The translations under genes and the position numbers were made by a program. Below are positions 1-20,997 of a stretch of 20,997 nucleotides of DNA, in pieces. The stretch comes from a virus (lineage: Duplodnaviria > Heunggongvirae > Uroviricota > Caudoviricetes), in IMG/VR virus record IMGVR_UViG_2534681759_000007; one strand, given 5' to 3'. How positions within the stretch are numbered: position 1 is the stretch's first letter; every line of letters starts with the position of its first letter. The notes beneath the pieces are model-generated. The model ran no database searches. It saw nothing but the letters and a program-made list of their open reading frames with translations, and was not told the origin of the DNA.

Positions 1-1164
1 TTACGCCTTCTTTATATCCTCCATAATTCCAGAGTGGGACATATTTGGGACATTATCACCAAAAATGTCGTCTATTTTCCTCGCATGCTCTGTCAAATGA
101 TTAGGCGCAAGGTGAGCATACCTACGAACCATTTCTATGGACTCCCATCCGCCCATTTCCTGAAGCACTGATAATGGGACGCCTGACTGAATCAGCCAGC
201 TTGCCCAGGTGTGTCTGAGGTCATGGAAACGGAAATCTTCAATTCCTGCACGACGACAAGCTGATAGCCATGATGTCTTGCTGTCGATGCGCATCTTCCT
301 GACCGCAGGCGTTGATGTTCCATCTGCTCGCTTAGCCGCCTTGGTATGTACAAACACCCATTTGTGATGCTTGCCTATTTGATCACGCAACACTTTACAG
401 GCGGTATCGTTCAGCGCCACACCAATGGCGCGGTTTGATTTGCTCTCTTCTGGATTCACCCAGGCAACTCGTCGCTGCATGTCGATTTGTTGCCATTCCA
501 GATTTATGATGTTCGACTTTCTCAGACCAGTTGCCAGCGCAAACTTGACGACAGATTTCAGTGGTTCGGGGCACTCATCAATAAGGCGTTTTGCTTCCTC
601 CTTTTCCAGCCATCTGACTCGCTTGTTTCTGACCGCTGGTATCTTGATGACAGGCGCTTTTTCCAGCCACTTCCAGTCGCGTTCTGCAGCACGGAGAATG
701 GCCTTTATCATGGCAAGATGCTTTGCCTTTGTCTGAGTTGATACTGGCTTTGGTTCATAAACAGGCGGTTCTTTACCTTTCCTGATGGCGGCCTGAACTT
801 TCTGTTTCCATATTTCTTTCGTCTTTCTGTTATGCATTCTGCTTACAGCAGAGTAAATCTTTGCCTCCGAGATATCTTTAAGCCTTATACCCTCAAAATG
901 TTCAAGCCAGAACTCAATCCGGCTTTTATCTGAATCGAGAGATTTTTTATCAGCTTTTTCCTCAAGCCATCTTAGGCAGGCCTCTTCAAAAGTGACATCA
1001 GGTAAATCCCCTAGCTTTTCTACTCGCCAGAGTTCTGCTTTTCGCTTGTCGTGCAACTCCTGAGCTTGCCGCTTGTCCTTTGTGCCAAGAGATTCCTTAA
1101 TTCGTTTCCCGCCCGGGAGCGAATACGAGGCATACCATATTTCATTTCTGCGGAAGAGTGACAT
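1..1164 (-). CDS. int: Phage integrase, tyrosine recombinase family
   Basis: 387-aa ORF with ATG at 1164 and stop at 1-3. C-terminal region [15 protein letters not shown]...VRRYAHL fits the R..H-x-x-R..Y catalytic signature of tyrosine recombinases. First gene at the left edge, as expected at a prophage end. Confidence 0.9.
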
Positions 1165-1391
1165 TTTCTTTCCTCTGTTATGCCATCACCCGCGCTCACC
1201 TGGACAGTATGCAGCGGAGACTGAAGCGCCGCAATGCAGGCTTGCCGTGTTGTGAGGTAAGGAGATTTTGGCTTGGTTGGATCTTTACGTGTTGCCTGTA
1301 GGCGGCCTGTTCGTATCCAGTTGGTGGCGGTTGGTCTGGATATCTTAAGAAACTGACAGGCCTCATCGAGTGTGAGGCTGTATGATTCCAT
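1020..1391 (-). CDS. Excisionase-like DNA-binding protein (AlpA/Xis-type HTH); 3' extent uncertain
   Basis: ATG at 1391 preceded by a GAGGT Shine-Dalgarno-like sequence; N-terminus [31 protein letters not shown] resembles excisionase-type HTH proteins. The open frame overlaps the start of int by about 145 nt, which is unusually long. Confidence 0.55.
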
Positions 1392-1641
1392 GGTTACCTC
1401 TGCTTTTTGAACGCATGTCACGTAACTTCTTAATGTGTTCTGCCGTTTCGATCTCTTCTGCTATCCGATCTGCATCAGCTTTATTCACAGGTTCAAAGTC
1501 ATGATTAAAGCGGAACATGCTGGCGATACATGTTCTGCCTTTTCGGATGTAGTGAACTTTGTTGTGGGTAGAACGCAGGATTTTGCAGGGAGTGCCGTGG
1601 TGGTCGACGTACCAGGTGTTAGGAAAAATGATTCTGAACAT
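1363..1641 (-). CDS. Hypothetical small phage protein
   Basis: 92-aa ORF, ATG at 1641 with GAGGTG 8 nt upstream; co-oriented with int/xis; no family recognised. Confidence 0.45.
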   Translation of the reverse strand: MFRIIFPNTWYVDHHGTPCKILRSTHNKVHYIRKGRTCIASMFRFNHDFEPVNKADADRIAEEIETAEHIKKLRDMRSKSRGNHGIIQPHTR

Positions 1642-1688
1642 TTTTACACCTCAGTTGGACGATGTTGAAATTTGCTGCTTTGAGGCCA

Positions 1689-1907
1689 TCACAGTCCCCA
1701 TTGTTTGTTCTTAAGTTCGATCTCCTCCTGGCAACTTGCACAAGTCCGACAACCCTGAACAGCCAGGCGTCTTCGCTCATCTATCGGATCGCCACACTCA
1801 CAACAATGAGTTGCGGATACAGTCTGGTAGTTCAGACGACGCATTTTTATTGCTGTATTGCGCTGTAATTCTTCGATTTCTGATGCTGAATCAATGATGT
1901 CTGCCAT
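1689..1907 (-). CDS. TraR/DksA-family C4 zinc-finger protein
   Basis: 72-aa ORF with CCECGDPIDERRRLAVQGCRTCASC, i.e. two C-x2-C pairs typical of phage-encoded TraR/DksA-like zinc fingers. Confidence 0.75.
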   Translation of the reverse strand: MADIIDSASEIEELQRNTAIKMRRLNYQTVSATHCCECGDPIDERRRLAVQGCRTCASCQEEIELKNKQWGL

Positions 1908-2005
1908 CTTCCATTAATCCCTGAATTGTTGGTTAATACGCTTGAGGATGAATGCGAACAATAAAAAAGGAGCCTGTAGCTCCCTGATGATTTTGCTTTT
2001 CATGT

Positions 2006-2320
2006 TCACCGTTCCTTAAAGACGCCGTTTAACATGCCGATCGCCAGGCTTAAATGAGTCGGTGTGAATCCCATCAGCGTTACCGTTTCGCGGTGCTTCT
2101 TTAGTACGCTACGGCAAATGTCATCGACGTTTTTATCCGGAAACTGCTGTCTGGCTTTTTTGATTTCAGAATTAGCCTGACGGGCAATGCTGCGAAGGGC
2201 GTTTTCCTGCTGAGGTGTCATTGAACAAGTCCCATGTCGGCAAGCATAAGCACACAGAATATGAAGCCCGCTGCCAGAAAAATGCATTCCGTGGTTGTCA
2301 TGCAGCCTCCCGACGGGCAA
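2006..2320 (-). CDS. Hypothetical phage protein (start uncertain)
   Basis: 104-codon open frame beginning with TTG at 2320 (AAGGA upstream); in-frame ATGs at 2287 and 2221 are alternative starts. Co-directional with neighbours, no family recognised. Confidence 0.4.
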   Translation of the reverse strand: MPVGRLHDNHGMHFSGSGLHILCAYACRHGTCSMTPQQENALRSIARQANSEIKKARQQFPDKNVDDICRSVLKKHRETVTLMGFTPTHLSLAIGMLNGVFKER

Positions 2321-2855
2321 GAATCCTTGAGCCGAACGCCATCAACTCTCCACGATCAACAGTCGTAAAGTGGCAGTGTGTACGGGGGTATGGGTGCCAG
2401 ATAATGAGCATCGAGCCTTTATTATTTCCACTGACGGGTTTCTCAGTGAGTGGGTTAATAAATGCCAGTCGTCCTGCCGTGATGAATCTGACCTCACTGG
2501 CGGTTTGTATCGCTTCATGAAACCATCCGACAGATGTGTCAGCAGGCAATAACATTACACATCCCACACTACTGAATTTGTTTTCAGTGGCTGCCTTTTT
2601 CACAAAAGGGGAAATATTGCTGTATGGTGGATTCAACCAGACATAACCAGAGGCATATCCCATTGCTTCAGGCCATGAAGTGGTTAATGTGTTCTGCTCC
2701 TGTGAGATAAAAAGCCGACATAGTCGGTTTTTTTCGCTGGCGGCAGCATCAAGTTGAAAAACGAACTCTGCATTAAGCGCAGCAAAAATCTCTGGTGGTG
2801 TGCGCCAGCTGTCGCGATGTTCGGCAGGAGTATTGCTTCCGGTGAAATCAGTCAT
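2298..2855 (-). CDS. Phage DNA N6-adenine methyltransferase (Dam-like)
   Basis: 185-aa ORF containing the NPPY motif (YVWLNPPYSN) typical of amino-methyltransferase motif IV; ATG at 2855. Confidence 0.75.
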   Translation of the reverse strand: MTDFTGSNTPAEHRDSWRTPPEIFAALNAEFVFQLDAAASEKNRLCRLFISQEQNTLTTSWPEAMGYASGYVWLNPPYSNISPFVKKAATENKFSSVGCVMLLPADTSVGWFHEAIQTASEVRFITAGRLAFINPLTEKPVSGNNKGSMLIIWHPYPRTHCHFTTVDRGELMAFGSRILARREAA

Positions 2856-3009
2856 ACAGCCCCCGTTTATTATTTATCTCCTCAGCCAGCCGCTGTGCTT
2901 TCAGGGGATTTCGGATAACAGAAAGGCCGGGAAATACCCAGCCTCGCTTTGTAACGGAGTAGACGAAAGTGATCGTGCCTACCCGGATATTATCGTGAGG
3001 ATGCTTCAT
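2848..3009 (-). CDS. Small hypothetical protein (53 aa) coupled between exo and the methyltransferase
   Basis: My own translation of the minus strand: [53 protein letters not shown]. Its ATG overlaps the exo stop and its TGA overlaps the methyltransferase ATG (ATGACTGA arrangement). Too short to appear in the supplied ORF track. Confidence 0.3.
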
Positions 3010-3686
3010 CGCCATTGCTCCCCAAATGCAAAACCAATTTCAGCCAGTGCCTCGTCCATTTTTTCGATGAACTCCGGCACCATCTCGTCAAAACTCGCCA
3101 TGTACTTTTCATCCCGCTCAACCACGACATAATGCAGGCCTTCACGCTTCATACGCGGGTCATAGTTGGCAAAGTACCAGGCATCTTTTCGCGTCACCCA
3201 CATGCTGTACTGCACCTGGGCCATGTAAGCCGACTTTATGGCCTCGAAACCACCGAGCCGGAACTTCATGAAATCCCGGGAGGTAAACGGGCATTTCAGC
3301 TCAAGGCCATTGCCGTCACTGCATAAACCATCGGGAGAGCAGGCGGTGCGCATACTTTCGTCGCGATAGATGATCGGGGATTCAATAACATTTACGCCGG
3401 AAGTGAACTCAAACAGGGTTCTGGCGTCGTTCTCGTACTGTTTTCCCCAGGCCAGCGCTTTAGCGTTAACTTCCGGAGCCACACCGGTGCAAACCTCAGC
3501 CAGCAGGGTGTGGAAGTAGGACATTTTCATGTCAGGCCACTTCTTTCCTGATCGGGGCTTTGCTATCACGTTGTGAACTTCTGAAGCGGTGATGACGCCG
3601 AGCCGTAATTTGTGCCATGCATCATCCCCCTGTTCGACAGCTCTCACGTCGATCCCGGTACGCTGCAGGATAATGTCCGGTGTCAT
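3006..3686 (-). CDS. exo: Lambda exonuclease (Red alpha)
   Basis: 226-aa ORF that I recognise as near-identical to phage lambda Exo ([40 protein letters not shown]...); overlaps bet stop as in lambda. Confidence 0.95.
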
Positions 3687-4468
3687 GCTGCCACCTTCTG
3701 CTCAGTGGCTTTCTGTTTCAGGAATCCAAGAGCTTTCACTGCTTCGGCCTGTGTCAGTTCTGACGATGCGCGAATGTCGCGGCGAAATATCTGGGAACAG
3801 AGCGGCAATAAGTCGTCATCCCATGTTTTATCCAGGGCAATCAGCAGAGTGTTAATCTCCTGCATGGTTTCATCGTTAACCGGAGTGATGTCGCGTTCCG
3901 GCTGACGTTCTGCAGTGTATGCGGTATTTTCGACAATGCGCTCGGCTTCATCCTTGTCATAGATACCAGCAAATCCGAAGGCGAGACGGGCACACTGAAT
4001 CATGGCTTTATGCCGTAACATCCGTTTGGGATGCGACTGCCACGGCCCCGTGATTTCTCTGCCTTCGCGGGTTTTGAATGGTTCGCGGCGGCATTCATCC
4101 ATCCACTCGGTAACGCAGATCGGATGATTGCGGTCTTTGCGGTAAATCCGGCATGTGCAGGATTCGTTGTCCTGTTCAAAGTCCATGCCGTCAAACTGCT
4201 GGTTTTCGTTGATGATGCGGGACCAGCCATCAACGCCCACCACCGGAACGATGCCGTTCTGCTTATCGGGGAAGGCGTAAATTTCTTTCGTCCACGGATT
4301 AAGGCCGTACTGGTTGGCGACGATCAACAATGCGATGAACTGCGCATCGCTGGCATCACCTTTAAATGCCGTCTGGCGAAGAGTGGTGATCAGTTCCTGT
4401 GGGTCGACAGAATCCATGCCGACACGTTCAGCCAGCTTCCCAGCCAGCGTTGCGAGTGCAGTACTCAT
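3683..4468 (-). CDS. bet: Lambda Bet (Red beta single-strand annealing protein)
   Basis: 261-aa ORF recognised as near-identical to lambda Bet ([66 protein letters not shown]...). Confidence 0.95.
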
Positions 4469-4918: not shown

Positions 4919-6865
<1,947 letters not shown>

Positions 6866-7488: not shown

Positions 7489-8352
7489 TCATTTCGCATC
7501 TACAATAAATAACCTGTTTATCTGGCCTTTTTTAACAGTAGCCTTTGCGGTTATAGTGAATACTGCAGATGGATCACCTTTGGTTGATATATATGCACTA
7601 AGAGCTCTAATATACGGGTTATTCTTCTTTCCTGCAGCTGGATCGCTAATTTCAGCAGTGATTCTCTTTTTTGAGTCATCACCATCTAAAATTATTTTAG
7701 CTGTCATATTTTGTGCATCAAATTCTGTAAGAAAAGCACGATACTCACGAAGACCGAGAACTTCATCATCATCAAGCCTATCAATTTCAGCTTTATCTCT
7801 CTCGTTAACTTTTAGAAGGCAGCCGTCAACATTTGTTGCAACACTTATCTGATCGCAAGTATTACCAATAGGTGATACTGCCTGCCTTACAGAGGGGCGA
7901 AGCTCTACAGCCATTCGGTCAATCAAAGAGATCAACTTATCAATGGTTCCAGCATCCTTGTTTCCTAGTGCCTCTATGGCCTTTTCAAGTGACTGCTGCA
8001 AAGCTTTCATTTCATCTTTCTTGTTAGAATTTCTCGCAAAAATATATTGTAGTATTGCGCCAAGTATAGTTGCGGCGATCCCCGAGAACAACTGGTTCTG
8101 AGTGGCGAAGTTAAGAACTGCTTCAAGAGTAAAGCAGTTAGCTTTTGCTTCGCGTGCGTAAACCTTAACTTCCTGATAATTAATGTATTTACTATATTTT
8201 TGTGTAACAGAGAAAGAAGCTGCTGTTGAGAGAACTTTAGAAAAACCCTTTAGGGATTCTCCTAGGCAGTTCAAATCTATTTCATGATTTAAAGCATCTT
8301 TTCCGTCATACCTAAGAGAGATTTTTATATCCTGTAAAGCGTCACAATCCAT
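7489..8352 (-). CDS. Hypothetical protein in the rexAB-equivalent slot downstream of cI; candidate superinfection-exclusion/abortive-infection protein
   Basis: 287-aa ORF, ATG at 8352, 66 nt after the cI stop and co-oriented with it; visibly AT-rich relative to flanking phage genes; one central hydrophobic segment ([18 protein letters not shown]); no family recognised. Confidence 0.6.
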
Positions 8353-8418: not shown

Positions 8419-9108
8419 TTATCCATGTTTCCTGTACGTCTGGGGCATGCTCCCAATAACCTTACCGAAGATGAACACCCGGTTCATCTCGTCTTTCTCG
8501 ATCGGGTCCCACGGTGAGTAGCTCTTGTTATCAGAGATAACCAGCAGCTTATCCTTCATCATTTGCAGGCGCTTTACATGGGCTGTGTCGTCGTACAGAA
8601 ACGCATAGATACCATCACCGTCGAAAGATTTAACCGTGATATCAACGAACAGCAGATCACCTGGTTCGATCGTTCCTGACATGCTGTCACCACGCACGTT
8701 AATGATGCGGATATTTTCCGCCTTCCTACCATCGAACATGTGACGAGCATCGTCAAACGAGTACTCAACCGAGCGTAGAACTTCTACAAACTCACGGTTG
8801 ATGACTCCCGGCCCAGCACTGACTTCTATATCAAGAACGTCAATCTTGAAGTATTTGGAATGGCTGACAGTTGATTGTATTGGTTGCACTGTACTGTCTG
8901 ACATATTTCCAACGCCAGAAGATAACCATTCTGCGCGCACACCCAAAGCGTTCGCGATCTCCACGATTTTAGTTGTTTGATTAGCTTTCCCTGTTTCGAT
9001 TTTCTGAATAGCAGCCTGGCTAACCCCGACCAAATCCCCAAGCGCCTTTTGTGTAAGGCCTCGCGCTAATCTGGCTTCTTTAAGTCTTTCTGAGAGTGTT
9101 GTTTTCAT
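8419..9108 (-). CDS. cI: CI-like prophage repressor (N-terminal HTH plus C-terminal S24 LexA-like peptidase domain)
   Basis: Start taken at MKTTLSERLKEARLARGLTQKALGDLVGVSQAAIQKIE (ATG 9108), an XRE-type HTH. C-terminal GDSMSGTIEPGD and HVKRL supply the Ser/Lys dyad of autocleaving repressors. Divergent from cro across an operator-containing spacer. Confidence 0.85.
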   Translation of the reverse strand: MKTTLSERLKEARLARGLTQKALGDLVGVSQAAIQKIETGKANQTTKIVEIANALGVRAEWLSSGVGNMSDSTVQPIQSTVSHSKYFKIDVLDIEVSAGPGVINREFVEVLRSVEYSFDDARHMFDGRKAENIRIINVRGDSMSGTIEPGDLLFVDITVKSFDGDGIYAFLYDDTAHVKRLQMMKDKLLVISDNKSYSPWDPIEKDEMNRVFIFGKVIGSMPQTYRKHG

Positions 9109-9114
9109 AGTCCA

Positions 9115-9180
9115 AATGTACAACCAAGGTTTTATTCCATCAAACGAAAATGGTTGTTGACTAAAAACAACCATAGTTTT
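9115..9180. promoter_or_regulatory. Putative OR operator / pRM-pR region
   Basis: Perfect inverted repeat TGGTTGTT-N7-AACAACCA at 9151-9173 plus additional GGTTGT half-sites in the 104-bp cI-cro spacer. Confidence 0.55.
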
Positions 9181-12132: not shown

Positions 12133-13326
12133 TTATTCAATTAACGGTACTTGTTTGTTGCAGAATACTAATATTGCATCTTGAGTAAGTTTTTTATGCA
12201 TATGCTTTAGCGGCTCAATGTTAGTCTCGTAACCGAAAGTAGCGAAAAGAGTTGGTTCTATAATGAAATTTTCTTCATAAGCTTTTAGATCAAATGCTCT
12301 CTTTGCAATTAATCTAACTGCTTTCTTTCTAATGCGTGAATTATATCTATTCTCTATGCTAAGTTTAGCCATGTTTTCATCGATGTTGTTTTTTTGTTTT
12401 TTTAGTATAATTTGAATGTGATCATCATCAATTTGGCCATCTCTATATATATAATCAATGTCATAATTAAAATCAAAAAGCTGAGTGTCATTTACACCTT
12501 CAAGAAAAGGATTTGAAAATGGGCTCATGATCGGATCGAGTGATTTTTTATAAGTACTATTGCATTTAGTGCAGCTAGGAATTAAGTTAAATAAACTAAA
12601 GGAGATCAACGGATATTTGTACTTAGGTATGAAATGATCAAATGCTGGCCTGTAGCTAGTACCTGTATGGTCTTCTACTTGTTCAATTTCTTCACTGTTG
12701 CAATATGGGCATATGCTAATGTCTAAAAAACTGTTCAATTGATACGCTGTTTCTCTATCAATAAGTGAGTATTTAAATATTTCAGAAATATTTTTAACCC
12801 ATGATGGAAATAACTTAATGGTATTTTCCTTTAAAGGACCACCATTCTTGATACTTATAAGATTAAGAATCTTATCTCTTAAACTAGATAATTTTTGTGG
12901 TGAGAAATGTGTATTTAATATATCCTCAAGTATTAGGCTTTGTGTAGTTTGAGAGAAAGATGTGATTATTTTGATGGCATGTGCTAGTTCATTATAAACT
13001 ATTTTTTTGTTTTCTTTTGTTTTTAAAGGTAATTGTAGGTTTGTTAATGGTTGTAAATTTAAGTGCCTTAAAAAATAATCAGGAGAATAGTACTCACACA
13101 CAATTGGGTGTTTGTTGTATATTTTGATGATTATATTTTTTAATCGTTTGGGTTTTGAAAAAACTAATTTTCTGATAGTTTTTTTGTTGATTGTATTTAG
13201 AAACTCTACTTCATCGGGAGTAATGTTCAGTAACTTCCTCTGCTTCACGCGTTTATTAACTTTGCTTACTATTTTAGAAAAGGATATTTTTACATCAACA
13301 TTGAAGTCTTTGTTTATTTTTATCAT
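12133..13326 (-). CDS. HNH-family nuclease (PtuB-like), 397 aa, second gene of the AT-rich two-gene island
   Basis: HNH/His-Me finger signature at residues ~206-256 (nt ~12559-12711): CPYC...EDH...FDHFIPK...NLIPSCTKCN. Protein is Lys/Asn/Ile-rich and the DNA is strongly AT-rich; start is 9 nt downstream of the ATPase stop. Confidence 0.8.
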   Translation of the reverse strand: MIKINKDFNVDVKISFSKIVSKVNKRVKQRKLLNITPDEVEFLNTINKKTIRKLVFSKPKRLKNIIIKIYNKHPIVCEYYSPDYFLRHLNLQPLTNLQLPLKTKENKKIVYNELAHAIKIITSFSQTTQSLILEDILNTHFSPQKLSSLRDKILNLISIKNGGPLKENTIKLFPSWVKNISEIFKYSLIDRETAYQLNSFLDISICPYCNSEEIEQVEDHTGTSYRPAFDHFIPKYKYPLISFSLFNLIPSCTKCNSTYKKSLDPIMSPFSNPFLEGVNDTQLFDFNYDIDYIYRDGQIDDDHIQIILKKQKNNIDENMAKLSIENRYNSRIRKKAVRLIAKRAFDLKAYEENFIIEPTLFATFGYETNIEPLKHMHKKLTQDAILVFCNKQVPLIE

Positions 13327-13335
13327 TTTTTTTAC

Positions 13336-15123
13336 TCATTTCTCAAAAGAATCTGTTTTATCATTGTTTTTGTTTAACTTCAGATCAATAAGATTTATGA
13401 GAAGTTTATTTTTAATTTGTGATAGTATGGTTTTTTGATGTTTATTTAAATTACCGTCATCTGAGTTTTTTATTATTGAGTTTAGATAATTATGTGCGTG
13501 CTGTCCTATTGTAGCATCAATAAAAAAACCATTTATATATAATTCTGATATGGTTGCTCCGAAACCAAACTCTACTTTCTTAGTATAGGTTCCTTGATTA
13601 TGATCTCTTTCAAGATATATTATATCTGATGGCAAAAAATCACTTGCGAGTATAGGGGAGTGAGTTGTAAATACTAATTGAATATTTTTACTTTGTTTAT
13701 ATCTTAATGTTAAATCTATAATTTCTGAAAAAATAACTCGTTGCCATTCAGGGTGTAGATATAAATCACACTCATCTAATAATATTATAATATTTTTGCT
13801 GTTGCTATGTTCTATAGAATCATAAAGTTGATTGAAAAGGTTTAATTTTGCAAACTCTCCTGAACTAAGTGAATCCCAACCATACTTAAATCGCGATGAT
13901 ACGCCATTTGGTAACCTATCAACTAATCTTATTAACTCCATAATCTGCTTTGGTTCTTCAACTGTGAAAGATAAACTATCAACTGGGTCTCTTGCTGTGT
14001 TTTCTAATATATCAGCTATATTACCTATAATGTCGGAGATATGTTCAGATAACATTTCTATTTTTGACTGAAATTTAACATTAACGTTAAATTCATCTAA
14101 AGTCTCTAATATAGTTTTTGCTGGATCTTTTTCTTCAAGATACGCGCGACACAAGCAAAATAAATAAACAGTCTCACATATGTCTTTAGGGATTTTTGAT
14201 GTCTTGAGTAAATGCCATGTTATTGCAGGCAAAAGCATCAAGTAAATTATTTTGTGATATGAAAAGGTTGCGAGGAAATTTAATGATCTTTCTTTGTTAA
14301 AAATAATGCTAATAATAAAATCTTCATCGTAATCTATCCCATGATTGAGTATATCCACAAGTGAAATACCTAAAGAATCTAAATCACGTTCAATATATCT
14401 AGGGAGTTTATTGTTTTTAATTCTATCATTCAACGTATCAAAAAAGTATTCAATAGCTCCAAAAAGTCCTTTGTCACCAATATCATTGTTTTTTATAATA
14501 GAATTTATTTTATATACTGGTGAGTTTTCTATTTCAAATTGAAATTTAGTATTAAGTCTTGATAAATTGTCTTTAGCCCATGAACTGTGGTCTGAAAATG
14601 AAATTAATTGCTTGAGTAATTTCTTATTGCGTGTTTTACTGCCTTGCAAAAAATATGACAGTGATAAATCTTTAGAAATCGAATCGTTTTTTTTCTTTTT
14701 TTGTCCAACTAACATACTTTTGAGGTCGATTGTGTTATTTATCTTTATTAGATTGATTTTGTTTCTTCTAAAAAAATGTTCATTATTATCAATTAGTTCC
14801 GTTTGCATTTTGGATAATATTACAGGAGGTTTGCAATTGCTTGTGATAATTATAAGTTTATCATTTTCATTCCAGATGCTATAACCGCTACCTTCAAAAT
14901 CGTAAATAAAGCTACTAATGAAATCTAAAATTGATGACTTTCCAACACCATTTTTCCCTAAAATTAATGTACAGGGAATATTGCTATAATAGTCACGACT
15001 TAAATCTTTCTTAGCAATTGTAAGGACGTTACCTTTATGGCTAAAGGTAAATTTACTTGAGGTGGGGAGGGACAGCTTATTTAAACCTTTATAATTGTGG
15101 ATATAAGTGTATATTAGTTCCAT
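13336..15123 (-). CDS. ABC/SMC-like ATPase (AAA_15/AAA_21-type, PtuA-like), 595 aa, first gene of the two-gene island
   Basis: Walker A GKNGVGKSS (nt ~14935-14961), signature-like LSSGE (13855-13869), Walker B IIILLDECD (~13765-13791) and H-loop FTTHSP (~13654-13671), with a ~350-aa helical insert between Walker A and the signature. Strongly AT-rich. Confidence 0.8.
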   Translation of the reverse strand: MELIYTYIHNYKGLNKLSLPTSSKFTFSHKGNVLTIAKKDLSRDYYSNIPCTLILGKNGVGKSSILDFISSFIYDFEGSGYSIWNENDKLIIITSNCKPPVILSKMQTELIDNNEHFFRRNKINLIKINNTIDLKSMLVGQKKKKNDSISKDLSLSYFLQGSKTRNKKLLKQLISFSDHSSWAKDNLSRLNTKFQFEIENSPVYKINSIIKNNDIGDKGLFGAIEYFFDTLNDRIKNNKLPRYIERDLDSLGISLVDILNHGIDYDEDFIISIIFNKERSLNFLATFSYHKIIYLMLLPAITWHLLKTSKIPKDICETVYLFCLCRAYLEEKDPAKTILETLDEFNVNVKFQSKIEMLSEHISDIIGNIADILENTARDPVDSLSFTVEEPKQIMELIRLVDRLPNGVSSRFKYGWDSLSSGEFAKLNLFNQLYDSIEHSNSKNIIILLDECDLYLHPEWQRVIFSEIIDLTLRYKQSKNIQLVFTTHSPILASDFLPSDIIYLERDHNQGTYTKKVEFGFGATISELYINGFFIDATIGQHAHNYLNSIIKNSDDGNLNKHQKTILSQIKNKLLINLIDLKLNKNNDKTDSFEK

Positions 15124-16271: not shown

Positions 16272-16554
16272 TTTGAGAAAAGCAGCGCGTGGTCGGGAAT
16301 GCCAGGTAAGAATCCCTGGCGTATGTAATGGCAACCCTGAAACGTCTGTACTGGCACATATCCGGCTGGCTGGATTGTGCGGTACCGGTATCAAACCGCC
16401 AGACCTGATTGCCACCATTGCATGTTCTGCCTGCCACGACGAAATCGACCGCCGCACACATTTTGTCGATGCTGCATATGCAAAAGAATGCGCGCTGGAA
16501 GGTATGGCGAGAACACAGGTTATCTGGCTGAAAGAGGGGGTTATTAAGGCGTGA
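16264..16554 (+). CDS. ybcO: YbcO-like nin-region protein with a Cys/His metal-binding motif
   Basis: Start at [23 protein letters not shown]...[11 protein letters not shown] (96 aa); recognised as the DLP12 YbcO family. Confidence 0.8.
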
Positions 16555-16913
16555 ATACCTACAGCATCACATTACCCTGGCCTCCGAGCAATAACCGCTA
16601 CTACCGGCATAATCGCGGGCGCACGCACATCAGCGCAGAAGGGCAGGCATACCGCGATAACGTCGCCCGAATCATTAAAAACGCAATGCTGGATATCGGC
16701 CTGGCTATGCCTGTGAAAATCCGCATTGAGTGCCACATGCCGGATCGCCGTCGCCGTGACCTGGATAATCTGCAAAAAGCCGCTTTTGACGCACTCACTA
16801 AAGCAGGTTTCTGGCTGGATGATGCTCAGGTCGTTGATTACCGCGTTGTGAAGATGCCTGTTACCAAAGGTGGGAGGCTGGAACTGACCATCACCGAACT
16901 GGGAGATGAATGA
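16551..16913 (+). CDS. rusA: Holliday-junction resolvase RusA
   Basis: 120-aa ORF recognised as near-identical to E. coli RusA ([26 protein letters not shown]...[25 protein letters not shown]). Confidence 0.95.
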
Positions 16914-17050
16914 TGTTTGAGTCTTATATGGCAGAGCGTCTTCGCCGCCGCTGGGTGCGCCTGCGCTTATATCGTTTCCCCGGTTCTGTTTTGACCGATT
17001 ACCGAATACTGAAGAATTACGCCAAAACACTGACAGGAGCAGGAGTATGA
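16913..17050 (+). CDS. ylcG: YlcG-like small protein (45 aa)
   Basis: My own translation: [45 protein letters not shown]; its ATG overlaps the rusA stop (TGATG). Confidence 0.7.
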   Translation: MFESYMAERLRRRWVRLRLYRFPGSVLTDYRILKNYAKTLTGAGV

Positions 17051-17135
17051 AGTCAGAGATAACAATCAACTAATACTGTTTTGTTGATTTTTGCTTGTAA
17101 TTGGCGTTCTGGTCTGATTTTTGTGGAGTAAGTTG

Positions 17136-17519
17136 ATGCGTGATATTCAGATGGTTCTTGAGCGTTGGGGAGCGTGGGCGGCTAATAATCATGAAGATGT
17201 GACCTGGTCGTCCATTGCCGCCGGTTTTAAGGGATTAATTACTTCAAAAGTAAAATCTCGCCCGCAATGTTGTGACGATGACGCGATGATTATTTGCGGG
17301 TGCATGGCCCGTCTGAAAAAGAACAACAGCGATTTGCACGATTTATTAGTAGATTATTATGTAGTCGGTATGACATTCATGTCACTGGCAGGTAAGCATT
17401 GCTGCTCTGATGGTTATATCGGGAAAAGGTTACAGAAGGCTGAGGGCATAATTGAAGGGATGTTAATGGCATTAGATATCCGGTTAGAGATGGATATCGT
17501 TGTTAATAACTCTAATTAA
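17136..17519 (+). CDS. quuD: Late-gene antiterminator Q (DLP12 QuuD-like)
   Basis: 127 aa from the ATG at 17136 ([22 protein letters not shown]...), with Cys-rich segments ([18 protein letters not shown]). Lies downstream of rusA/ylcG and upstream of the lysis genes. Confidence 0.8.
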
Positions 17520-17708
17520 TATGCCAATTGTTTACTAAAAATTATTAAAAATGGGGCGTTGAGACGCCCCCAAAAATAAAGGGTAATATATAACAGAAGG
17601 TTTATATAGTTAGAAGCAAGGTTGTGCTCCTAAAGGAAGTGGCTTGAGGGAGCCACTTATATGTTGGGGAGGCAAAGCCTCCCGCAACATATCTTTTTCG
17701 TAATCAGA

Positions 17709-18806
17709 TTAGAACTGGTAAACCAGACCTACAGCAACGATGTCATCAGTGCTTACACCGAGTGCTTTAGTGAAGTCATTTTTGTCAAGCAGGTTGATTT
17801 TGTAATCAACGAAAGTTGACATATTTTTGTTGAAGTAATAGGTGGCACCTACATCAACATATTTGACTAAGTCCTGATCGCCCCATACTCCAAGATCCTT
17901 ACCTTTAGATTGCAGGTAAGCAACGGACGGACGCAGACCGAAATCGAACTGATATTGTGCAACAGCTTCGAAGTTTTGAGCTTTATTAGCAACGAAGTGA
18001 TCAGCAAATACAGTCATATTCTGGGTTTCAGAATAGGTAGTGGCCAGGTAAATGTTGTTAGCGTCATATTTCAGACCTGCGGCCCAAACTTCTGCATTTT
18101 TACCGGAAGCAAATACTTCAGGAAGAACTTTCCCTGCATTAACTTGAGTGTCGGTACGATCAGATTTCGCATAAGTTGCACCGATACCGAATCCTTCGTA
18201 TTCATAGGTAGCAGAGAAACCGAAGCCATCACCGTTACCTTCGGTGTAGTTATCGAAATCGCTACGATCGTTTTTGCCTTGGTACTGAGCAGCAAAGTTC
18301 AGACCATCAACCAGGCCAAAGAAGTCGTTGTTACGATAGGTTGCAACACCAGTGGTGCGACCAGTCATGAACACATCTGTTTGGGTCCAGGTATCGCCAC
18401 CGAATTCTGGCAGAACGTCAGTCCACGCACCGATGTCGTATGCTACACCGTAGTTACGGCCGTAATCGATGGAGCCGTAGTCACCGAATTTCAGGCCAGC
18501 GAAGGCAAGACGGGTTTTATCTTTGGAGGAACCTTGAGATTCAGCGCGGTTGCCTTTGAATTCATATTCCCACTGACCGAAACCAGTCAGTTGATCGTTG
18601 ATTTGGGTTTCACCTTTGAAGCCAAGACGGGCATAAGTAGTATCACCATCATCTGCATCATTAGAGGAGAAGTAGTGCTTAGCATTAACTTTCCCGTACA
18701 GATCCAGCTTGTTACTGTCTTTATTATAAATTTCAGCTGCCTGAGCAGACATCGCCATCAGTACTGATGCAGCTACAGCAGAAATTGCCACTGTTAATTT
18801 TTTCAT
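17709..18806 (-). CDS. nmpC: Outer-membrane general porin NmpC/OmpD-like, apparently intact
   Basis: Start at [23 protein letters not shown] (signal peptide) followed by [17 protein letters not shown]... and C-terminal ...VGLVYQF, i.e. hallmark porin N- and C-termini. Encoded antisense between Q and the lysis cassette. Confidence 0.9.
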
Positions 18807-19233
18807 CGTGAGCCCTTTTTTTGAACTATTATTAAAAAATGATGTCACTGCGCGATAAATATTCATCTAATCAATATGATTATTTCAAGATGTAAGTTTT
18901 GGTTTCTCGTTTGATTTGTGAAGTAGATCTCTATTTTTATCTGAACTTTTTTCTATCGAATCCTATTCATGGCTCTTGGCTGAATAAAAATAAATCTATT
19001 AGCCAATTTATATTAACGGTTGTTATTTATAAGTGCTCTATGATTTGAAGGTTCAATTTAAATCGGCTAAAAATAACACTGGAAATTATTTGTTGGTTAT
19101 TTGTTGAGATTTGCTTATGTATTTGTAGTGGTGTTTTCAATACTCGGTAGCATTCTCGCAAATATCATTTAGTGGTTTACGTACGTAAAAAATTGGTTAT
19201 GCTGTTAAGAGTGGTTACTTCGTCACACAGCTT

Positions 19234-19267
19234 AAACCCGCCGTCGAGCGGGTTTTTCCATTTTTTG
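19234..19267 (+). terminator. Intrinsic terminator upstream of the lysis cassette (tR'-like)
   Basis: GC-rich hairpin AAACCCGC-CGTCGA-GCGGGTTT followed immediately by a T-run (TTTTCCATTTTTT) on the plus strand, about 110 nt before the holin start. Confidence 0.6.
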
Positions 19268-19378
19268 AGTCTCGATATTAGCTGATAACCCAATACCTGA
19301 GTTATTCACTGACTCCGAGTCTGTTACGTTTCGTAGTATTCCCTCAATTTACACCCGCTTTGTCTGCGAGGTGGGGTT

Positions 19379-19594
19379 ATGAAATCCATGGATAAGTTAA
19401 CAACGGGTGTCGCCTATGGCACCTCAGCAGGTAGTGCCGGTTACTGGTTTTTACAGCTGCTCGATAAAGTCACGCCCTCACAGTGGGCAGCAATAGGTGT
19501 GCTGGGTAGCCTGGTATTTGGCCTGCTGACGTACCTGACAAACCTTTATTTCAAGATTAAAGAAGATAAGCGCAAGGCTGCGAGAGGTGAATAA
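19379..19594 (+). CDS. essD: Phage-21-type pinholin (S21-like) with dual-start motif
   Basis: 71-aa [29 protein letters not shown]... with two hydrophobic segments and a charged C-terminal tail; Met1/Met4 give the antiholin/holin dual start described for S21-type pinholins. Confidence 0.85.
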
Positions 19595-20091
19595 TGCCTC
19601 CATTATTACGAAAAGCCGTTGCTGCTGCTATTGGTGGCGGAGCAATTGCTATAGCATCAGTGTTAATCACTGGCCCAAGTGGTAACGATGGTCTGGAAGG
19701 TGTCAGCTACATACCATACAAAGATATTGTTGGTGTATGGACTGTATGTCACGGGCATACAGGAAAAGACATCATGCTCGGTAAAACGTATACCAAAGCA
19801 GAATGCAAAGCACTCTTGAATAAAGACCTTGCCACTGTCGCCAGACAAATTAACCCGTACATCGAAGTCGATATACCGGAAACAACGCGCGGCGCTCTTT
19901 ACTCATTCGTTTACAACGTGGGTGCTGGCAATTTCAGAACATCGACGCTTCTTCGCAAAATAAACCAGGGCGATATCAAAGGCGCATGTGATCAGCTACG
20001 TCGCTGGACATATGCTGGCGGTAAGCAATGGAAAGGTCTCATGACTCGTCGTGAGATTGAGCGTGAAATCTGTTTGTGGGGTCAGCAATGA
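19594..20091 (+). CDS. rrrD: SAR endolysin (lysozyme, T4-lysozyme-like fold, phage 21 R-like)
   Basis: 165-aa ORF with a Gly/Ala-rich N-terminal signal-anchor-release segment ([20 protein letters not shown]) followed by a lysozyme domain; start overlaps the holin stop (TAATG). Confidence 0.88.
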
Positions 20092-20186
20092 ACAGAGTAA
20101 CCGCGATTATCTCCGCTCTGGTTATCTGCATCATCGTCGGCCTGTCATGGGCTGTTAATCATTACCGTGATAACGCCATTACCTAC
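20088..20186 (+). pseudogene. Rz spanin gene truncated after ~33 codons by IS66-family insertion
   Basis: ATG overlapping the endolysin stop (ATGA); N-terminus [33 protein letters not shown] is a typical Rz signal-anchor. The frame then enters the IS end at 20187 and stops after 17 non-native codons. Confidence 0.65.
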
Positions 20187-20271
20187 GTAAGCGCATCATT
20201 TAAACCGTCTTTCGCCTCCCTTTCCTGTTTCCGATACTAATGTCCATTTTCGCAGTAAAAGGACATTTAAG

Positions 20272-20868
20272 ATGAATGCACGAAAGGCGGTACTGGCAGA
20301 TAACCCGGAATTGATCCTGCGTGTGCTACAGCTGAGATTTGACGAGTCACTGTCGTACCCGCGCATTTCTGCGCAGACCGGTGTCAGCAAAACCGCCATT
20401 TTTTCTCTGGTGAGGCGATTTCACCAGATATTCGCTGACTGGCCTCTTTCCGGTGAATATTCCTGCATGCAACTGGCCCGGGCTCTTTTCCCTGGGCGAT
20501 ATCCTTCAGCCCCGACAGTGACTCAGCCTGTGAAAACAGAGAAAATCCGCCGGAACCGATTTTCACCGGAGTTTAAATGGAGGCTTGTTCAGCAAACTCT
20601 TTTACCCGGTGCCTGTGTCGCACAAATAGCTCGCGAGAACGGAATCAACGATAACCTGCTCTTTAACTGGCGGCATCTCTGGCGTAACGGCGGCCTGCAG
20701 CCGCCCGGCGAACATGAAACATCGCTACTTCCCGTGACGTTAACGCCGGAGCCGGATAATAAAATCCCGGCACCAGTGCAAGACTACCTAGAACAGAATA
20801 AATACACTGCCAGACAGTCTGTGCTGCGAGCTGGTTCTGCCGGCCGGAACTCTCAGGCTGAAAGGTGA
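20272..20868 (+). CDS. IS66-family accessory protein (orf1/TnpA-like) with an N-terminal extension; 3' end possibly frameshifted
   Basis: 198-aa ORF; segment RRNRFSPEFKWRLVQQTLLPGACVAQIARENGINDNLLFNWRHLWRNG is the HTH typical of IS66 orf1 proteins. A different frame (20792-20926) encodes an ...LVLPAGTLRLKGELTPALLQTLIREMKGSSH tail that ends in the TGATG junction. Confidence 0.6.
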   Translation: MNARKAVLADNPELILRVLQLRFDESLSYPRISAQTGVSKTAIFSLVRRFHQIFADWPLSGEYSCMQLARALFPGRYPSAPTVTQPVKTEKIRRNRFSPEFKWRLVQQTLLPGACVAQIARENGINDNLLFNWRHLWRNGGLQPPGEHETSLLPVTLTPEPDNKIPAPVQDYLEQNKYTARQSVLRAGSAGRNSQAER

Positions 20869-20925
20869 ACTGACACCGGCGTTATTACAGACACTTATCC
20901 GCGAAATGAAAGGGAGCAGCCACTG

Positions 20926-20997
20926 ATGATATATCTCTCCCTGCCGGTTCGCGTATCTGGCTGGTTGCCGGTATCACCGATATGCGAAATGGCTTTA
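20926..20997 (+). CDS. Start of IS66-family orf2 (TnpB-like), partial and possibly frameshifted at codons 3-4
   Basis: ATG at 20926 in the TGATG overlap typical of IS66 orf1/orf2 junctions. A TnpB-like peptide ISLPAGSRIWLVAGITDMRNGF is encoded in a frame offset from this ATG. Confidence 0.35.
   Translation, partial: MIYLSLPVRVSGWLPVSPICEMAL

Follow-up and report, generated by a model that had tools for sequence, protein, structure and literature searches.

The locus studied here raises the question of what a complete porin gene does between the Q antiterminator gene and the lysis genes of a lambdoid prophage: whether it is intact, which signals read it, and whether it belongs to the late transcript. 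It lies in a 20,997-nt stretch of viral DNA (IMG/VR record IMGVR_UViG_2534681759_000007), which was analysed as a whole and is called the window in what follows. The first-pass annotation of this DNA had described the gene as an intact nmpC-type porin, encoded antisense and carried as a lysogenic-conversion moron in the slot where other lambdoid phages have genes such as stx.

Prophage context and gene order

The window is part of a DLP12-type lambdoid prophage, whose integrase gene occupies positions 1-1164 on the - strand. In three ETEC genomes, which cover 87-100% of the window with an identity of 99.8-100%, the prophage adjoins a tRNA-Arg gene, which in K-12 is argU. The right-hand part shows the gene order ybcN, ninE, ybcO, rusA (16551-16913), ylcG, quuD, porin, essD, rrrD and rzpD (Table 1), and rzpD, which codes for a spanin, is interrupted by an IS66-family element. 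The segment comprising Q, porin and holin is 100% identical to the three ETEC genomes and to one further E. coli genome; in the identical RefSeq DNA the porin gene carries the annotation "porin". The order and orientation that had been proposed, with a signal-peptide porin placed antisense between Q (PF06530) and the holin gene (PF04971), both on the + strand, are thus borne out. A tRNA scan gave no match in the window, which in this respect differs from the Q-S region of Stx phages.

Table 1. Positions of the features of the porin locus in the window
Feature	Positions	Strand	Basis or remarks
quuD, Q antiterminator, 127 aa	17136-17519	+	PF06530
Porin-bearing segment with respect to a 933W-like Q-pR' layout, ~1.68 kb	17496-19174		Homology limits
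nmpC 3'UTR, the 167-nt ipeX region of the literature	17542-17708	-	K-12 homology; exact 3' end inferred from length and terminator
Intrinsic terminator, stem-loop 17553-17570, then T tract	17543-17570	-	Terminator scan and fold
Hairpin and U run, reverse complement of 3'UTR hairpin 1	17659-17698	+	Fold
nmpC CDS, 1098 nt, 365 codons	17709-18806	-	Uninterrupted ORF; TAA stop within the coordinates
Signal peptide, residues 1-23, AQA/AE cleavage site (predicted)	18738-18806	-	Mature OmpC chains start at query residue 24
nmpC regulatory region, -199 to -1	18807-19005	-	K-12 homology
Ribosome-binding site AAGGG	18813-18817	-	
Candidate transcription start G	~18851-18853	-	Sequence scan
Candidate -10, AATATT	18858-18863	-	Sequence scan
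Candidate -35, TTGAAA	18883-18888	-	Sequence scan
Candidate CRP-like site, would centre near -72.5	18917-18932	-	Sequence scan
pR' homolog, -35 TTTACG 19176-19181, -10 TATGCT 19198-19203	19176-19218	+	Alignment with annotated pR'
Initial transcribed 13-mer TAAGAGTGGTTAC	19206-19218	+	Invariant in four aligned sequences
tR' homolog, hairpin 19234-19255 and T run	19234-19265	+	Terminator scan; aligns to annotated tR' (933W, SC370)
essD, P21-type holin	19379-19594	+	PF04971; RefSeq name in identical DNA
rrrD, lysozyme	19594-20091	+	PF00959; RefSeq name in identical DNA

The porin gene is an intact copy of nmpC

The interval 17709-18806 given in the first-pass annotation coincides exactly with the porin coding sequence and its TAA stop codon on the - strand. 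The gene was compared with K-12 nmpC, which was reconstructed by excising IS5 together with the duplicated 4-bp target and then translated (365 aa). The split of the K-12 gene by IS5, which the first-pass annotation had mentioned, is visible in the K-12 sequence: in MG1655 the element lies after codon 346, whereas the copy in the window is without IS5. Both the reading of the ORF and the alignment with IS5-excised NmpC gave zero frameshifts and zero internal stops, so that the gene is full-length and intact, as had been supposed. The two proteins share 363 of 365 residues, with G149 and T151 here in place of Q149 and A151 in K-12, in agreement with the nmpC-type identity assigned at first. The coding sequences are 98.3% identical; among their 19 nucleotide differences only three are non-synonymous, changing two residues, and the differences around residues 149 and 151 cluster at 18335-18394. 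Identity to K-12 amounts to 99.7% for quuD, 98.9% for both intergenic regions flanking nmpC, and 98.6% for essD. On sequence grounds, the gene is nmpC, an intact copy of the porin of DLP12/PA-2-type lambdoid prophages.

The mechanically called ORF reaches 18866, 20 codons beyond the ATG at 18806. The predicted true start is the ATG at 18806, because it is preceded by a ribosome-binding site, because the same start is annotated in K-12 and RefSeq, and because transcription is thought likely to begin only downstream of the other ATG.

NmpC is predicted to fold like OmpC

The protein matches the Pfam family PF00267 (Porin_1) over model positions 1-337 of 337 (E=1e-156, 522 bits versus a cut-off of 23.7) and the OmpC subfamily NF007841 of NCBIfam (526.5 bits versus a cut-off of 484). 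Residues 24-365 align with residues 1-343 of the mature OmpC chain 2xe2_A (E=1e-135). Since mature OmpC aligns from residue 24, residues 1-23 would represent a signal peptide that is cleaved after AQA. The mature N-terminus, AEIYNKD, fits the AE(I/V)YNKD of enterobacterial general porins, and the C-terminus is VYQF, with the aromatic Phe as final residue. With respect to OmpC, the PEFGGD of loop L3 is conserved (LPEFGGDT is the same in both proteins in the alignment), together with YARLGFKGE, TRxAFAGLKF and one further block. From the full-length alignment with the solved OmpC structure, an OmpC-like fold is predicted for NmpC; in general porins this is a trimeric 16-stranded beta-barrel with a diffusion pore. 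Alignments of the kind that had been suggested as a check of the assignment gave 363/365 residues against K-12 NmpC, an end-to-end match with mature OmpC, and 77-79% identity against OmpD-type porins. No NmpC or OmpD chain was present among the PDB matches of the protein, and a PADLOC scan of the porin returned no defence-system match.

Promoter region and 3'UTR

The 199 bp that precede the ATG are identical to K-12 at 198 positions. In K-12, deletion of exactly this 199-bp segment and 5'RACE place the promoter PnmpC there, with a G as transcription start (PMC11677980). This promoter drives detectable mRNA; CRP is reported as its activator, and OmpR, IHF and MprA as its repressors (PMC11677980). 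Because of the 198/199 identity, the same regulation is probable for the gene studied here, and the sequence scan located candidate -35 and -10 elements, a candidate start and a CRP-like site in the segment (Table 1). The DNA upstream of nmpC has a G+C content of 29-35%. The AT-rich stretch 18870-19230, in which the first-pass annotation had suggested promoter mapping, holds the homolog of the late promoter pR' as well as the nmpC regulatory region.

On the other side of the gene, the region between quuD and nmpC (17520-17708, 189 bp) is identical to K-12 at 187 of 189 positions. A fold of the 182-nt - strand sequence that begins with the stop codon and includes the terminator (17530-17711) gave five hairpins, with z = -8.98 with respect to shuffles, and the last of these hairpins is the intrinsic terminator. 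The 7 stem pairs of the terminator are all invariant in 15 distinct sequences. The region is the one that the literature assigns to ipeX, which two papers describe as an RNA from the nmpC/lc 3'UTR that lowers OmpC and OmpF (PMC12197685, PMC5069750), and by this assignment the 3'UTR is a putative regulatory RNA in the window as well. Neither the ipeX-assigned 3'UTR (17542-17708) nor the late promoter in the AT-rich stretch had been mentioned in the first-pass annotation.

The covariation analysis of the 3'UTR found one compensatory pair and, as 65 of 500 shuffles reached the observed score, gave no support beyond conservation. With G-U pairs taken into account, pairing is almost equal for the two strands, at 679 of 690 cells for RNA of the - strand and 676 of 690 for RNA of the + strand, and does not single out either RNA as the selected one. 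Rfam gave no match at the gathering threshold in the whole window, and none for the 3'UTR; within 17000-19500 it returned only two chance-level matches (E values of 0.48 and 0.88). The hairpin that forms on the + strand at 17659-17698 may, as a speculation, stop rightward transcription leaving quuD.

The porin lies between Q and the late promoter

QuuD is 100% identical to K-12 QuuD at the protein level. When compared to the 144-aa Q proteins of 933W and Ss-VASD, it is 77-80% identical over the first ~120 residues; beyond these it diverges, and its C-terminus is shortened relative to 933W Q. The late promoter and its terminator are found on the other side of the porin. In fact, positions 19175-19262 align with the annotated pR'/tR' segment of the Stx phages 933W, SC370 and Ss-VASD, where this segment overlaps the 3' end of Q and directly follows it, and the tR' hairpin was found independently by the + strand terminator scan. 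The 13-mer TAAGAGTGGTTAC, which stands directly after Q in the Stx phages, has one occurrence in the window (0 expected by chance); in the fetched Q-porin-holin loci it is present once, on the holin side, except in two that are cut at the porin start codon. Homology to phages without a porin after Q stops at 17468-17495 and resumes at 19175. Relative to a 933W-like layout, the porin-bearing segment sits between Q and pR' and has replaced the C-terminus of Q.

A candidate pR' beside quuD (TTGAGA-19 bp-TAATAT, 17559-17589, with the 17659-17698 hairpin as tR') was also considered, and it was rejected since the homology to annotated pR'/tR' sits at 19175-19265. This quuD-side promoter would have given a leader RNA antisense to ipeX.

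These positions modify the earlier proposal that the porin occupies the slot of the Shiga toxin genes. As far as gene order is concerned the proposal holds, since porin and stx are both found between Q and S, but the transcriptional slot is different: stx is downstream of pR'-tR' in 933W-type phages, while in the window pR'-tR' (19175-19265) is on the holin side of the porin. Instead of belonging to a late operon of the stx type, the porin was found on the - strand, with the pR'/tR' homologs past it in the + sense. By this layout the porin, which pR' only follows and which is encoded on the other strand, is outside the Q-dependent late transcript. Its description as a moron agrees with the data, since the unit has its own promoter and terminator, as judged from K-12-like sequence and from the scan, and is present or absent between otherwise related phages.

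Distribution, alleles and relics

Intact copies of nmpC are common. Some match to the coding sequence was found in 3196 of 5426 complete E. coli genomes, and in 2465 genomes a single place covers at least 80% of it, a number that is an upper bound for intact copies, given that IS5-bearing K-12 derivatives still cover 95%. In at least 36 sequenced lambdoid phages, 80% or more of the 2.5-kb segment from Q through the porin to the holin is found at a single place. The version in phage 434B is that of K-12, disrupted by IS5.

All of the best 80 IMG/VR loci have an intact gene of 365 codons, in 25 distinct DNA sequences. These 25 alleles show 34 synonymous versus 4 non-synonymous codon variants, a ratio that indicates purifying selection on the NmpC protein. 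Other Escherichia alleles of 360 aa have a protein identity of about 90-91%, and a 365-aa allele of E. albertii has 95.9%. Differences between alleles cluster at about residues 180-190, 218-232, 266-270 and 338-348, while the first ~178 residues are almost invariant. The divergent patches are the places of OmpC insertions and deletions, and, from general porin topology, we take them to be the surface loops L4, L5, L6 and L8. In the loci with divergent porins, identity remains mostly at 92-100% for quuD, the 3'UTR and essD; it varies more between nmpC and essD, where it drops to 70-80% in a few 60-nt windows.

The unit is also found in relics of prophages. In EcN and APEC O18 both Q and the lysis genes are lost, and the equivalent of positions 17421-19143 is kept between ybcM and yedK. 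A relic in E. albertii keeps 17544-18957, adjoining a Bor-like lipoprotein gene and the minCDE region. The 3'UTR region is thus retained in relics without Q, and the boundaries agree with a single unit that would extend from promoter to terminator.

Proposed function and alternative explanations

Taken together, we consider it very likely that the locus is an autonomous, leftward-transcribed unit, placed between Q and pR', that provides the general-diffusion porin NmpC. In a lysogen, transcription of nmpC would start from a sigma-70 promoter of the unit itself, located about 45-85 bp before the ATG, and would be most active under carbon limitation. The 365-aa precursor would be exported through Sec, cut after AQA (residue 23) and assembled into an OmpC-like beta-barrel, as its homology suggests. 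The transcript would continue for about 165 nt beyond the stop codon, as far as the intrinsic terminator, and its structured 3'UTR (ipeX) would lower OmpC and OmpF post-transcriptionally, so that the unit would swap the phage porin for the host porins rather than merely add to them. Given the location of the unit ahead of pR' and its opposite orientation, its expression should be independent of Q and of induction, and late transcription should not cross the porin.

Published data from K-12 are in line with this scheme. In strain NCM3722, where nmpC is intact, NmpC accounts for ~2% of the proteome and is the porin specialised for carbon limitation, and in MG1655 nmpC::IS5 the level of OmpC is more than 10-fold higher (PMC8144880). 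The high OmpC level of the IS5 mutant and the induction by carbon limitation fit the activation by CRP and the reported effect of ipeX. Likely benefits for the lysogen would be the uptake of nutrients when carbon is limiting and an altered cell surface, with less OmpC and with the variable loops L4-L8 of the phage porin.

OmpC serves some phages and colicins as a receptor. The main selected function might consequently be superinfection exclusion, with the 3'UTR lowering this receptor and the porin compensating for permeability. The more than 10-fold lower OmpC in the presence of an intact nmpC (PMC8144880) and the concentration of allele divergence at the positions of loops L4-L8, the OmpC indel patches, would be expected in that case; however, the unit persists in relics without any phage function, which favours a benefit for the host, and the tail genes are outside the window. 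We regard exclusion as the main function as possible but rather unlikely; it is compatible with, and not exclusive of, the porin-swap account given above.

It is unlikely that the intact gene is silent in this host and adds nothing to the outer membrane under ordinary conditions, for example owing to H-NS acting on the AT-rich upstream DNA or to repression by OmpR. H-NS silences DNA of G+C content as low as the 29-35% found upstream of nmpC. Moreover, OmpR, IHF and MprA are the reported repressors of PnmpC (PMC11677980), and the title of a cited paper calls nmpC "quiescent" in E. coli BE, so that intactness alone does not guarantee that the gene is expressed. On the other hand, the promoter region differs in only 1 of 199 bp from that of K-12, where PnmpC gives detectable mRNA, an intact allele reaches the proteome share mentioned above in NCM3722 (PMC8144880), and the excess of synonymous variants argues against a gene that is not expressed. 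A probably expressed porin unit is the reading we retain. That instead the + strand is coding (through a 285-codon ORF at 17910-18767, the + strand having a stop-free stretch of 298 codons, or through a small ORF at 17661-17819 whose IS5-split counterpart figures as a pseudogene in the annotation of phage 434B), and the porin frame incidental, can be dismissed with near certainty, because the long frame has 33 non-synonymous versus 1 synonymous variants and internal stops in 16 of 25 close alleles, the longest antisense stop-free stretch ranges from 99 to 345 codons in divergent alleles, and the porin frame has the opposite pattern of variants.

The nmpC gene, its prophage origin, its disruption by IS5 in K-12, its expression when intact and the ipeX 3'UTR are already known from the literature. 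With respect to annotation, the near-identical K-12 allele suggests that nmpC in the window is probably functional, and it should be treated as a probable carbon-limitation-induced major porin that also depresses OmpC and OmpF, which bears on antibiotic permeability, sensitivity to phages and colicins, and surface antigenicity. The refinement that comes from the present analysis is that the porin unit lies upstream of pR' and not in the late transcript, and that its regulation should not be modelled on that of stx.

Comparison with known systems

The closest system is nmpC (b0553) of the DLP12 (qsr') prophage of K-12, with which the window has in common the order ybcN-ninE-ybcO-rusA-ylcG-quuD / nmpC / essD-rrrD-rzpD and the site at argU. 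By description, the locus also resembles the Lc porin and ipeX of the lambdoid phage PA-2, an NmpC-type phage porin with ipeX in its transcript and with loss of OmpC, reportedly the subject of work by Blasband et al. in 1986 and Castillo-Keller et al. in 2006.

Among the species aligned, the nearest relatives outside Escherichia are the chromosomal OmpD-type porins of Salmonella, Citrobacter and Enterobacter, which belong to the same length class and family as NmpC and carry another signal peptide (MKLKLVAVAV...). Of the 80 loci fetched, those from outside Escherichia all lack a neighbouring gene for Q, holin or RusA. An assignment of the gene as the orthologue of Salmonella OmpD was rejected, since identity is only 77-79%, the signal peptide is another one and the context here is a prophage. 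OmpC and OmpK36 (2xe2, 2j1n, 1osm) have the fold family, the conserved PEFGGD and the barrel segments in common with NmpC. Unlike nmpC, they are encoded by core-genome genes, and they have indels with respect to NmpC at residues ~183, 226-231 and 306.

As to the position in the phage genome, phage Lambda_2E9 has a related Q that is followed by another reverse-strand gene, coding for the lipocalin Blc. We tentatively propose, as a reading somewhat short of even probability, that the junction after about codon 120 of the 82/933W-type Q, upstream of pR', is a slot for reverse-strand cargo that is distinct from the stx slot. Insertion there would have replaced the C-terminus of Q and moved Q 1.7 kb from its loading site. 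The cargo would vary, with porin and ipeX here and Blc in Lambda_2E9, and the former would amount to a complete porin-swap cassette, made of a CRP-controlled porin with variable loops L4-L8 and a 3'UTR RNA silencing OmpC and OmpF, that hosts (EcN, APEC O18, E. albertii) would have kept repeatedly after decay of the prophage.

In the stx operon of 933W-type phages, the cargo is likewise placed between a related Q (77-80% amino acid identity) and the lysis genes. The stx genes are read by the Q-modified RNA polymerase. They lie downstream of pR'-tR' on the late strand, whereas the porin gene precedes pR', has the reverse orientation and would be served by its own promoter and terminator.

Disruption, relics and possible recombination of the porin gene

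The nmpC gene, intact in the window, is interrupted near its 5' end by the IS4-like element ISVsa5 in E. coli O111:H11 88.0502 (locus L167, 2501-4921). Together with IS5 in K-12, this makes two types of IS that have inactivated the gene independently. In E. coli EcN and APEC O18 and in E. albertii, the porin unit is found isolated, complete with its 3'UTR and promoter, and is accompanied by neither Q nor lysis genes. A gene annotated nmpC/porin OmpC is also present in P7 (P1-like plasmid prophage, NC_050152.1, 25399-25698) and shows 71% DNA identity to part of the nmpC of the window.

Most of the nucleotide differences from K-12 nmpC are held in a 60-nt patch (18335-18394), which is 82% identical to K-12 and in which both amino-acid changes with respect to K-12 NmpC (L3 region) fall. 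Since this patch is 95-97% identical to alleles that are more divergent elsewhere, the sequence comparison suggests that it is a short recombination tract.

Features of the window and isolated porin units (relic coordinates are those of the fetched loci)
Feature	Coordinates	Strand	Remarks
IS21-family element (IS100-like)	4978-6779	-	inserted in early-left region
istA	5757-6779	-	
istB	4978-5760	-	
DUF7946 + DUF7947 domain protein	7489-8352	-	287 aa
Partner protein of ATPase	12133-13326	-	397 aa
ATPase, AAA/ABC-type	13336-15123	-	595 aa
TnpA accessory ORF of IS66-family element	20272-20868		element lies beyond the rzpD break
Porin relic, E. coli EcN / APEC O18 (L164/L165)	2216-3920		flanks: ybcM and yedK
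Porin relic, E. albertii (L007)	1255-2667		flanks: Bor-like lipoprotein gene and ycgN/minCDE

Insertion elements and the lysis cassette

The IS21-family element of the early-left region is found at another place, inside the integrase gene, in those complete genomes that are closest to the window; the integrase of the window (1-1164), by contrast, is a full ORF of 387 aa. At the other end, the spanin gene rzpD (20088-20997 region) is broken off after about 33 codons, and the homology of intact relatives to the window stops at 20186. As the embedded o-spanin gene would also be truncated by the break, the prophage probably has a defective lysis cassette.

A candidate defence gene pair and a possible cargo position after Q

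The ATPase and its partner protein are encoded by adjoining genes in a low-G+C stretch flanked by replication genes and ybcN. With E=4e-44 and 1.5e-33, the pair matches proteins A and B of PDC-M62, a PADLOC candidate defence system; its match to PtuA/PtuB of Septu is weaker. The pair is probably an anti-phage system carried by the prophage. The DUF7946/DUF7947 gene adjoins that of the CI-like S24 repressor (8419-9174), and the sole PADLOC match of its product is a weak one, to PDC-S42 (E=1.5e-4).

The position of the porin gene has a counterpart in phage Lambda_2E9 (locus L175, 1537-2595), whose quuD-like Q gene shows 88% DNA identity to that of the window, the homology stopping at the same point, near the 3' end of Q. 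After Q, Lambda_2E9 carries a reverse-strand gene for the lipocalin Blc, whereas the window carries the porin there, and this suggests that the position after Q is a recurrent cargo slot.
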